Source of the DNA: an uncultured Gardnerella sp.
Lineage (GTDB): Bacteria > Actinomycetota > Actinomycetes > Actinomycetales > Bifidobacteriaceae
NCBI GenBank assembly: GCA_947088155.1
Contig: CAMUFL010000002.1
Span: 148,275 to 212,274, forward strand
Reading direction: 5' to 3'
Length of the DNA: 64,000 nucleotides
The number at the start of each line of letters is the position of its first letter. Positions within the stretch are counted from its first letter, which is position 1. Below are positions 25,397 to 28,300 of this stretch, one piece after another. The position numbers are program-made.

Positions 25397-28300
25397 TGAT
25401 TATGGCAGAGAAGCAAGTAAAATCGCTGCACGTTAGTGTGGTGGCAGCCAGGCATCCTGTGTGGGAAGGCGATGCTAAGTTTGTGGTTATTCCTTCTGTG
25501 AATGGCGCAATGGGTGTGCTTCCTGGGCATGAGGCTGTGCTTGCGTTAATTGATCACGGTTTTGTGAAGGTTGACGATTTGAAGGGTGTGCGTCACGTTT
25601 TTAAGGTGACGGATGGCTTCTTCTCTGTTGACGATGATCACATTACGATTGCTGTTGAGCACAGTTGTAACGTTGATAAAGACGGAAATGTGTTGCCTAA
25701 CGCAAAAGTGATTTAGGGTTTGCTTTTATTGCTTACGTAAGTTTTATTGCTTTTGTAAGTTTTATAGACTTGCGCAAGTTGAGTAATCTCTTATTAAGGC
25801 AGGAGTTTGGGATATTCCCAAGCTCCTGTCTTTTTGTTTTATCGCGCGCTTGTAAAGAAAATAGATCTCAGTGGCGAAACACTGTTACTAACTCAGTCAA
25901 GTATCTGAGAAAATAACGGTAATAAGCAAAACACTGTTACTGGCTCAGTCAACGAACTGAGAAAGTAACGGTAATAAGCAAAACACTGTTACTGGCTCAG
26001 TCAAGTATCTGAGAAAATAACGCTCACAAACGAAGCGACGTGTTTGTTTCGAGCAGCCATTGCGCTATGTCTATTACGTGTATTCCTTCAATATCGTAAG
26101 AATCGTGGCGAGTGTTTGCAAGTAGGATTTTAGTGTAAGAGTCTTTTATTGCTTTTAACGGCGAAAGTTCGCGCTCCAATGTGGAATCATCGCTAATGTT
26201 GTCTTCAAAATCGTGGTATTTTTTCACTTTTGAAAGTGGGTGCGTATGTTTGCGTAAAATCGCAATTATCTTTACTTTTGAGTATGCAAAATCGCAATTA
26301 TCTTTACTTTTGATGTTGATTATGGGAAAATAAGTAAAGATTTTAGTGCGTTAGTATTTAGATTCGTCATAATTTATCTCAATAAAGCAAGGCAAGCAGA
26401 AGAAAAAGAAGCGTTAAAAATGTATGATTACTCGGGATTTAACAAAAGGCTACAAGAAAAAGGTATTAAAAAATCGCAGTTAGCAGCCGAGCTGCATATT
26501 TCTTCTCGTACGATTGCAAAAATCTCAAAAGGCGAAAAACTATCAAATTCAGTAATCGCGAAAATTAGCAACTATTTACAATGCAAGCCTAGCGAATTGT
26601 ATCGCGTAATTTCAAGTAACCCTATTTTGCAAAGGCTTAGGGAAGAAAAGGCACATCGTATTCCAGGCGGAATTTATCACGAGCTTCAAATTCGTATGAC
26701 GTACAACTCGAATCATATTGAAGGAAGCCAGCTAAGTGAAGATCAAACTAGGCGAATTTTTGAAACTAATACTATTGATTCTGTAGAAAAAGTGGGGGGT
26801 GTAGTCGATAGCGCGGATTCAAGCGTTGGTGCAGTAGAGAAAACAAGTATTAAGGTTGACGACATTGTTGAAACAGTAAATCATTTTCGCGCGATTGATT
26901 ACTGTATTGATGTTGCTGAAGAGCCTCTTAGTGAAGACATGATTAAGCATTTACATTTGCTGCTTAAACGCGGAACAAGCGACGAGCTTCTACCTTGGTT
27001 CCGTGTGGGTGATTACAAGTTGCGTGCGAATGTTGTAGGCGGTGTGCAAACTTGCGAGCCGCAAAAAGTGCATGATGAGATTAGTAAGCTGTTGGCAGAA
27101 TACCTTGATAAAACTGATTTGCAGCTAGAAGATATAGTTGATTTTCACTACAGGTTTGAACGAATTCATCCCTTCCAGGATGGTAATGGTAGAGTTGGGC
27201 GTTTGATTGCTTTTAAGGAATGCTTAAAGCATAATATCGTGCCATTTATTATTGAGGATCGAAAGAAATACTACTATTATCGCGGTCTCAAAGAATATGG
27301 TAACGAGCGCGGATCCCTAGTTGAAACTTGCTATGACGGTCAAGATACGTTCCGCGCGTTGCTGAAGCTTTTTGGGTTGTGACGCGTTCTGTTTATTGCG
27401 TTTTGAGGCTCGTGTGAATATCACCTCACTTCGCAAAATTAAAAAATTTTCAAATTTGCGAAGTGGGATTTGGCTATTTTTGTGAAGTGGGATTTGCTTG
27501 GCATTAAAGCGTGTAAATCGTGCTACGCCGAAACGAGTGGCGTGATGTTGCTGATGCTGGATTCGTCAAATCGCAAAATGTCGTAGTCGAGTTGGAGATT
27601 GAGCCAAAAATTGGGGGTTGTTCTAAAAGCTTTAGATAGCTTGTATGCCATTGCTACGCTGATCGCGCGTTTGCCGTTTAAGATTTCTCCGATTGCTGTT
27701 TGGGATACACCGATAGTGTGTGCAAGTTTGTATGAGCTGATTTTAAGCGGTTCCATAAATTCTTCGCGCAAAATTTCGCCAGGAGTGCTCAAGTAGTTAT
27801 CTGTGGTAGTCGTCGAAGTAGACATCGTAAGCTTCTTTCGTATTGTTGTTCCATTTGAAAATTAGTCTGTATTGTTTATTTACTCTTATGCTCCAGTATC
27901 CAAGTAGATTGCCTTTGAGTGGCTCAAGCTGATTTCCTGGCGGCGCTTTAAGATCTTGCAAATCGTATGCAGCTTTTAGTATTTGCAGTTTTCTTTTTAG
28001 GATTTTTTCTAATCCAGTGGGATAACCTTTTGGGTACGAGCCGCCGTATAGGTAATCATTAAGTTCCTTTTCTCTGATTTCCATAAAACTATGGTAATGC
28101 ATTGCGTTACTAATGTAAAGCGTTAGCAACGATTGAACGGTTGGCGCGTGATGTTGCGCTATGTGGTTGTTGTGGTTTGCTTGCGTGCCATCGAAACGTT
28201 GTGGTTTTGATGGATTTTTGCAGGATTCTTTGTTGATTCTTGCCATGGGGGGGGGGGTAGATTTGTCTGTAAATGCTTTGTATAGCTGCGCTTTGTTTAA

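Follow-up and report, generated by a model that had tools for sequence, protein, structure and literature searches.

A length-variable G tract at the predicted promoter of a mosaic LRR surface-protein gene in a Gardnerella-like bacterium

Introduction

Repeats located in the spacer between the -35 and -10 elements of surface-protein genes are described for the poly-G tract of Neisseria meningitidis porA, the TA repeats of Haemophilus influenzae hifA/hifB and the poly-A tract of Mycoplasma hyorhinis vlp, and in such spacer-repeat switches one-base changes alter hexamer spacing and transcript level; the poly-C promoter tracts of Bordetella pertussis fim2/fim3 are named in the same source (PMC3899988). 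Closer to the organism studied here, Bifidobacterium breve UCC2003 switches its sortase-dependent pilus genes by replication slippage in G tracts, and further G tracts in promoter spacers are mentioned for this species (PMC9187656).

For Gardnerella, a 2024 survey reports a median of ~20 G/C tracts of at least 8 bp per genome, ~70% of which precede an ORF by less than 300 bp; many of these ORFs encode LPXTG or other surface proteins, some are toxin-antitoxin genes, and length variation was verified by Sanger sequencing at one GA-module gene (Garcia et al., mSphere 2024, PMC11287997). An intragenic poly-C switch of 8-14 C, positioned just after the signal peptide, is described for nanH3 (bioRxiv 10.1101/2020.09.16.300947). 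In the accessible text of these two papers, the LRR gene treated below is not named and no upstream tract is placed against promoter elements, and the PMC11287997 supplement contains no list of tract-associated genes.

Here we analyse an uninterrupted run of 11 G (G11) upstream of a gene for an LPATG-anchored LRR protein, within a 64,000-nt stretch of DNA that we refer to as the window. Measured against the upstream tracts delimited in PMC11287997, the run is at least 8 bp long and lies less than 300 bp from the ORF, and it shares with that set its lineage, its placement upstream of an LPXTG-type gene and its length variation between strains. Garcia et al. provide genome-wide counts and one GA-module gene, and nanH3 is an intragenic switch, whereas G11 lies upstream of its gene. 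Abundant, variable G/C tracts upstream of Gardnerella surface-protein genes were already published in 2024, and the LRR locus is a further, well-supported case. The new element may be the arrangement itself, in which a run of n G abuts a TANNNT hexamer, gives spacers of 16-19 nt and is attached to a mosaic LRR adhesin family.

In composition (poly-G, ~9-11) the tract resembles porA; it differs from porA, hif and vlp in its actinobacterial Gram-positive host and in that its promoter is a predicted one. The hif genes share a bidirectional promoter, whereas at the LRR locus the divergent higBA promoter is separate and ~115 bp away. With the B. breve pilus switches the tract has in common the family Bifidobacteriaceae, a G run of ~10-11 and a sortase-anchored surface target, but the characterised B. 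breve switches act by intragenic frameshift while the LRR tract lies outside the ORF; a G10 run elsewhere in the window (45605-14) is their closer analogue.

Results

The G11 tract and the LRR surface-protein gene

The tract and the gene that follows it occupy these positions:

28247 to 28257, plus strand: G11 homopolymer, a hypermutable tract (direct count; orthologous G8-G11 runs in 15 other assemblies)
28370 to 30574, plus strand: LRR protein gene, 734 aa, secreted, with an LPATG sortase signal (ORF, Pfam and tail inspection)

The initial annotation had counted the 11 G correctly and placed them one base too far to the left, at 28246-28256; its distance of 114 bp to the ATG gives way to a measured gap of 112 nt between the last G and the ATG at 28370. 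The run is uninterrupted and exceeds the ~8 nt slippage length of contingency loci. In a window with a G+C content of 42%, an iid model predicts 0.004 G11 runs, and three loci carry 9 or more consecutive G, counted as 6 overlapping matches, where 100 dinucleotide-preserving shuffles yielded 0.02 on average. The two other long homopolymers are the G10 at 45605-14, which is intragenic, and a G9 at 55866-74, leaving G11 the longest of the three, as first described. Those three tracts aside, the window contains no G/C run longer than 6 and no A/T run longer than 7. Each of the three is tied to the gene of a secreted or surface protein.

Domain analysis of the LRR protein revealed a signal peptide, matches to Pfam LRR_4/LRR_14 and to other LRR models, and, in residues 706-734, LPATG, a hydrophobic stretch and a basic RRVR tail. 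The protein had been described as internalin-like. This architecture bears the description out, and family membership does not: the best NCBIfam score against the internalin models (class 1 InlA, InlH) is 102.6 bits, compared with a 1,600-bit InlA cut-off, and what the protein has in common with Listeria class 1 internalins is the generic architecture only (signal peptide, LRR_4 repeats, LPXTG).

In a related contig (L015) the LRR ORF is called at 778 aa, extended N-terminally across the tract. We rejected this longer form: the window carries in-frame stops, one of them two codons before the ATG, the added segment lacks conservation, and the signal peptide would end up buried.

The host is a Gardnerella-like vaginal member of the Bifidobacteriaceae; the window encodes the same AtpD protein as 'Bifidobacteriaceae bacterium NR002', and related DNA is present in G. 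piotii.

Tract length and position among relatives

The comparison set comprised contigs encoding HigA/HigB and LRR homologues, with 16 independent sequences readable, the window included. The tract has the following lengths:

Window-type cassette, G11: window, L002, L003, L024
Window-type cassette, G10: L025 (97% identical to the window), L015, L017
Window-type cassette, G9: L016, with a scaffold gap beside the tract
Window-type cassette, G8: L014
Diverged but alignable cassette next to atpC, G10: L018-L021, L023
Diverged but alignable cassette next to atpC, G9: L022

The tract differs in length between sequences that are otherwise nearly the same. Across 5,070 nt, L022 (G9) and L023 (G10), which come from different samples, show 0 mismatches and a single gap, which is the tract; L016 (G9) and L017 (G10) are 99.6% identical and differ in the tract, as do the window (G11) and L025 (G10) at 97% identity. 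All these lengths are those of the assembly consensus, not of reads, and one-base differences in Illumina assemblies can be homopolymer errors. At the consensus level, the tract thus behaves as a contingency locus does, with length differing among very close relatives whose flanks are the same. A metagenome scan with the pattern GATTCTTGCCAT-N4-30-TAGATTTGT returned 7 matches, all due to chance and none with a G run.

Tract position is conserved. The run ends 109-112 nt before the ATG in LRR loci with three different upstream neighbours, namely higB, Fic (L016/L017) and atpC (L018-L023), a distance that also holds between alleles sharing only 25-32% identity in the LRR domain. The two cassette types share ~72% column identity, and the run is uninterrupted in both; an uninterrupted G run maintained at 109-112 nt in cassettes this diverged argues for selection on the tract itself. 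The placement of the tract in the regulatory region of the LRR/LPXTG gene, proposed from the window alone, therefore holds, since the tract travels with LRR genes. Judged from assembled sequence, the tract is real, is linked to the LRR gene rather than to higB, and is conserved in position while differing in length between near-identical sequences. Because of this length polymorphism, slippage-driven modulation of adhesin expression, one of two consequences that the initial annotation had suggested, is most likely the best reading; the other, a change in the HigB frame, fared differently (see below).

A second variable tract, T6-8 G6-12, lies downstream of the LRR gene in L018-23, between convergent genes.

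Candidate promoter elements around the tract

Loci that differ in their upstream neighbours are homologous from a hairpin ~55 nt upstream of the tract onwards, and the promoter should therefore lie in the short stretch that follows. This stretch and the region down to the start codon contain the following elements:

28188 to 28213, plus strand: hairpin plus T run, resembling a terminator, at the 5' boundary of the conserved LRR regulatory cassette
28214 to 28226, plus strand: 13-nt unit ATTTTTGCAGGAT, present as a single copy in the window (alignment)
28230 to 28235 and 28240 to 28245, plus strand: further TTG hexamers, TTGTTG and TTGCCA, flanking the candidate -35
28233 to 28238, plus strand: candidate -35, TTGATT (PWM scan; conserved in all window-type cassettes with readable sequence)
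28258 to 28263, plus strand: candidate -10, TAGATT, abutting the tract (TANNNT conserved; matches the B. breve key positions)
28264 to 28369, plus strand: predicted leader of ~100 nt, with a hairpin at 28327-28350 and the SD AAGGA at 28359-28363

Mapped promoters of B. breve have the consensus TTGACA/TATAAT with a 17-bp optimum; positions 1, 2 and 6 of the -10 and positions 1-3 of the -35 are decisive, spacer length ranks second among the determinants of expression, and genes with high expression carry leaders of ~100 nt (PMC5746004). The hexamer directly after the tract is TAGATT in the window and TATTCT or TACTCT in the other cassette, all conforming to TANNNT; in L016 the -10 reads TCGATT and the PWM site is not recovered. 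TTGATT lies 8 nt upstream of the tract, and for a run of n G the spacer is n+8.

In the PWM scan, TTGATT-N19-TAGATT is the best sigma-70-like site in the region upstream of the window gene, at a low specificity of the PWM in this genome, with scores of at least 8.2 in 24% and at least 9.9 in 8% of 200-nt coding chunks. The same pair also ranks first in L014, L015 and L017. Natural values of n from 8 to 11 yield spacers of 16-19 nt, which bracket the 17-bp optimum of B. breve, and among these four lengths G9 (17 nt) has the highest PWM score and G11 the lowest. The three overlapping TTG hexamers make the -35 ambiguous, with optima at G6, G9 or G16 depending on the hexamer. A promoter at this place would put the LRR transcription start near 28270.

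The leader hairpin has a counterpart of different sequence (GCGCTTTTGCGCG) at this position in the second, P0021-type cassette; the fold z-scores are weak (-1.9, -1.0). A search of the leader against Rfam yielded no family above threshold; its osmY match (20.9 bits against a 46.9-bit cut-off) was set aside as chance, being sub-threshold and found only in sequences identical to the window there.

We consider it reasonably probable that the tract is a slipped-strand contingency tract tuning adhesin transcription by promoter spacing, close variants of this mechanism included. During replication, the G run would gain or lose a G by slipped-strand mispairing. Because the run fills most of the spacer between TTGATT and TAGATT (tract length + 8 nt), each slip would change the spacing of the hexamers and with it the level of adhesin transcription. 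G9 would correspond to the 17-bp optimum, G10 to 18 and G8 to 16, and the G11 of the window, at 19, should be a weak setting. Cells would then differ, reversibly and heritably, in their display of a host-binding surface protein. In this scheme we infer the promoter assignment, the effect on transcription and the reversibility within a clone.

Alternative readings of the tract

In Bordetella fim, the poly-C lies between the BvgA site and the -10 and sets the distance to an upstream element, and BvgA is needed. The LRR tract is likewise a homopolymer upstream of an adhesin -10, and its length might fix how far upstream of the -10, and in what helical phase with it, a factor or UP-like site lies, independently of -35/-10 spacing. 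The candidate upstream site would be the variable 13-nt TTTTTGCAAGRTT repeats, which lie just upstream of the -35 candidates, occur in 1 to 3 or more copies among the aligned relatives, and might serve as an UP-like element or bind a factor. The -35 candidates are themselves weak or ambiguous; at the homologous place the P0021-type cassette offers only a weak TTAATT, and at G9-G10 the PWM scan found no good sigma-70 site straddling its tract. In B. breve, moreover, -35 elements are less conserved than -10 elements (PMC5746004). However, fim depends on an activator, whereas no regulator gene accompanies the LRR cassette in all contexts; within the P0021-type cassette the 13-nt repeat could not be recognised, and spacers of 16-19 nt suit the simpler model. 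We regard this explanation as unlikely.

The tract might instead be transcribed, within a longer leader that starts at a promoter further upstream, and act after initiation, either by making RNA polymerase pause or slip on G11 or by way of the structure, stability or translation of the leader RNA. Tracts located in leaders do exist in this genome, because the G9 at 55866-74, read as C9 from 55874 to 55866, lies downstream of a good TTGACG-17-TATCAT promoter in a predicted 5' UTR, and the promoter prediction at the G11 locus is weak evidence. Yet only ~55 nt of conserved cassette precede the tract, starting with a terminator-like hairpin, and no better promoter-like site occurs between hairpin and tract. 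The leader contains no C- or U-rich partner for the G11 stretch and, as noted, reaches no Rfam threshold. A post-initiation role thus appears quite unlikely.

A lineage-wide tendency to produce and tolerate G runs could also leave the tract as a neutral by-product, varying in length without regulatory consequence. Variability of a tract alone is no proof of function, because the T6-8 G6-12 tract between convergent genes in L018-23 varies even more and has no obvious target gene. The LRR tract, however, stays unbroken and keeps its spacing to the ATG in ~72% identical cassettes that have moved between contexts; by our estimate, nine adjacent sites would stay G with a probability of ~0.05 per lineage pair if cassettes had diverged neutrally to this extent. 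With all three long tracts of the window tied to secreted or surface protein genes, a neutral origin is improbable.

The neighbouring toxin-antitoxin module is organised as follows:

27797 to 28084, minus strand: higB, 95 aa, a neighbour outside the tract's unit (HigB domain, gene calls in relatives)
28091 to 28119, minus strand: higBA promoter TTTACA-17-TACCAT, with two 15-nt direct repeats at 28095-28125 (sequence; conserved in L001)
27523 to 27825, minus strand: higA (TIGR02607, 97 bits)

A long minus-strand ORF (27797..28318, 173 aa, TTG start) is open through the tract and does read it as PPP, as the initial annotation stated, though mechanically only; in the window, an ATG directly after the C11 run is also in frame with higB. 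The proposal that slippage shifts the reading frame of a long form of the toxin nonetheless finds little room. The HigB Pfam domain begins only at residue 82 of the 173-aa ORF, and in 4 related contigs gene callers give a 95-aa HigB from the ATG equivalent to 28084. The higBA genes have their own promoter, which ends 6 nt before the higB ATG, so that the mRNA is predicted to be leaderless, and the 15-nt repeats are operator-like; the tract lies outside both the HigB coding sequence and this promoter/operator region (28091-28125). In L001, which carries the same higBA module in another genomic context, the promoter element is conserved, homology ends ~65 nt upstream of the ATG, and both the extension and the tract are absent.

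The extension itself changes frame between close relatives (PPPMARINKES versus PPPHGKNQQKP), and neither its frame nor its sequence is conserved in L025, L002 and L003. The reading frame differs between the tract and a nearby indel, which leaves no conserved extension protein, and the extension is open only through the stop-codon poverty of this strand. Inspection and the upstream scan found no plausible hexamer pair for a minus-strand promoter using the C11 run. The tract, for its part, is kept where higB has decayed (L015) or is absent (L016-L023), and on the sequence evidence it belongs to the LRR gene, not to higBA. We accordingly attach almost no probability to slippage within a long HigB form.

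A mosaic LRR adhesin in a rearranging island

The LRR gene belongs to an island flanked by the atp operon and apbE/FTR1, where Fic, higBA, LRR and AAA_14 genes occur in varying order. Comparison of LRR alleles revealed a mosaic with conserved ends: the signal peptide is 78-93% identical between alleles and the last ~160 residues are 65-98% identical, in contrast to the 25-32% of the LRR domain between them. At the DNA level, homology between LRR loci is confined to two parts, the regulatory region with ~100 nt of the ORF and the 3' end. This pattern suggests replacement of alleles via the conserved ends, in addition to tract-mediated switching of expression.

More tentatively, and as a possibility we would not count as likely, the G tract may be part of a portable cassette that varies a Gardnerella adhesin in two layers, lodged in the rearranging island between the atp operon and apbE. 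Such a cassette may consist of a regulatory module of ~180 nt, the signal peptide and the C-terminal anchor, all conserved, with a swapped LRR domain between them; the module in turn may comprise an insulating hairpin, the copy-variable 13-nt repeat, the TTG hexamers, G8-11, the -10 and a structured leader. If so, slippage would produce phase variation, and recombination at the conserved ends would produce antigenic or ligand-specificity variation of the same adhesin, with the number of 13-nt repeats serving as a second, slower dial of expression.

In bacterial vaginosis the key biofilm former is Gardnerella, whose adhesins are poorly defined. A hypermutable promoter tract together with a diversifying LRR adhesin would make the protein a likely host-interaction factor exposed to immunity, and the locus would provide a concrete Gardnerella example of promoter-type, as opposed to frameshift-type, phase variation. 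Concepts in the field are unchanged by it, the phenomenon having been reported genome-wide in 2024, so that such a locus is expected in this genus, and the mechanism being classical.

Searches for exact protein matches to the window LRR protein and to P0001 returned none. When genome contigs of species representatives were searched with the LRR protein, the sole match was a C-terminal one of 60% in G. piotii, and the window allele is rare among species representatives. For annotators and assemblers, the tract is also of practical concern, in that contigs break at it and gene callers run ORFs through it.

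Mosaic structure of the LRR adhesin alleles

Comparison of the LRR surface protein encoded in the window (28370-30574, + strand, 734 aa) with four homologs from related contigs (P0005, P0006, P0016 and P0021) revealed that identity is concentrated at the two ends of the protein. Residues 1-40 share 78-93% identity and residues 571-734 share 65-98%, with only 25-32% across the LRR domain. At the DNA level, homology is likewise limited to the regulatory cassette plus approximately 100 nt of the ORF, and to the final ~370 nt. By these alignments the adhesin alleles are mosaic, and the combination of conserved ends with a divergent LRR domain suggests that alleles are exchanged via those ends.

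The conserved regulatory cassette carries two further features beside the G11 tract (28247-28257):

28214-28226: 13-nt unit, (A)TTTTTGCAAG(G/A)T(T), directly upstream of the TTG hexamers (candidate -35 elements)
28327-28350 (L018 ~2466-2482): hairpin adjoining the 5′ side of the purine-rich SD region, present in each of the two cassette types

The 13-nt unit is a second element of variable length in this regulatory region: the window, L024 and L025 have a single copy, L002, L003, L015, L016 and L017 have two, and L014 has at least three. The hairpin differs in sequence between the cassette types (TTTCACGCGCAGATGCGTGTGAGA in the window versus TTGCGCTTTTGCGCGAG in L018, which carries the diverged type); it could form a structure in the leader RNA or serve as a palindromic operator, its fold z-scores being weak.

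The G tract before the LRR gene disturbs both assembly and annotation. One contig begins 30 nt upstream of the LRR ATG (L013, 1-30), and an N gap adjoins the tract in the L016 scaffold (~2350-2380). The gene call in L015 (2046-4382) extends the ORF across the tract, yielding a 778-aa product with a buried signal peptide; the homolog P0124 (913 aa versus 881 in P0006) may reflect a similar call.

A second variable tract downstream of the LRR gene

Six contigs in which the LRR gene lies next to atpC (L018-L023) carry a T(6-8)G(6-12) tract directly past the LRR gene terminator, with convergent genes on either side and no obvious target gene. These contigs are otherwise very similar, and the length of the tract varies widely among them:

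L018, 4742-4753: 12 G
L019, 2901-2906: 6 G
L020, 2980-2991: 12 G
L021, 2979-2984: 6 G
L022 and L023, 3723-3730: 8 G each

Other long tracts in the window

45605-45614: G10 run inside gene 42355..45732 (- strand), reading C10 on the coding strand
55866-55874: G9 run upstream of gene 55552..55842 (- strand), reading C9 on the coding strand
55922-17 and 55899-94: promoter-like site TTGACG-17-TATCAT (- strand), ~19 nt upstream of C9

The product of gene 42355..45732 is an LPKTG surface protein of 1,125 aa that carries Listeria-Bacteroides repeats; C10 is translated as PPP immediately after its signal peptide (…SASAITPPPSTEV…). Since the tract length keeps the gene in frame, its state in the window is ON as judged by reading frame. 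The layout is that of the published poly-C frameshift switch of Gardnerella nanH3.

The C9 run lies 23 nt upstream of the ATG of 55552..55842, whose secreted product of 96 aa matches no Pfam family. Given its position downstream of the promoter-like site, C9 probably belongs to the 5′ UTR and not to a promoter spacer, and would thus be placed differently from G11.

On the + strand, each of the three long tracts reads as poly-G. GC skew of this strand is positive over 1-52 kb of the window, indicating that it is probably the leading strand; with n = 3 only, the agreement may be coincidence.

The higBA promoter and its surrounding island

28086-28125, - strand (L001 3680-3745): block with the higBA promoter (TTTACA-17-TACCAT) and direct repeats

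This promoter stops 6 nt short of the higB ATG, so a leaderless higBA mRNA is predicted. Two direct repeats of 15 nt, TAATGCATTGCGTTA and TAATGTAAAGCGTTA, overlap the promoter and resemble HigA operators. The promoter/repeat block is kept in L001, where the module has a different genomic context; higB is mostly deleted in L015.

The stretch from the atp operon (atpG/D/C) to apbE/FTR1 (22901-35881), with counterparts in L001, L016, L018 and L022, contains HTH-Fic, VbhA/Fic, higBA, the LRR adhesin and an AAA_14/DUF4143 ATPase. Gene order and orientation vary among strains, a pattern that identifies the region, at the level of gene arrangement, as a rearranging island.
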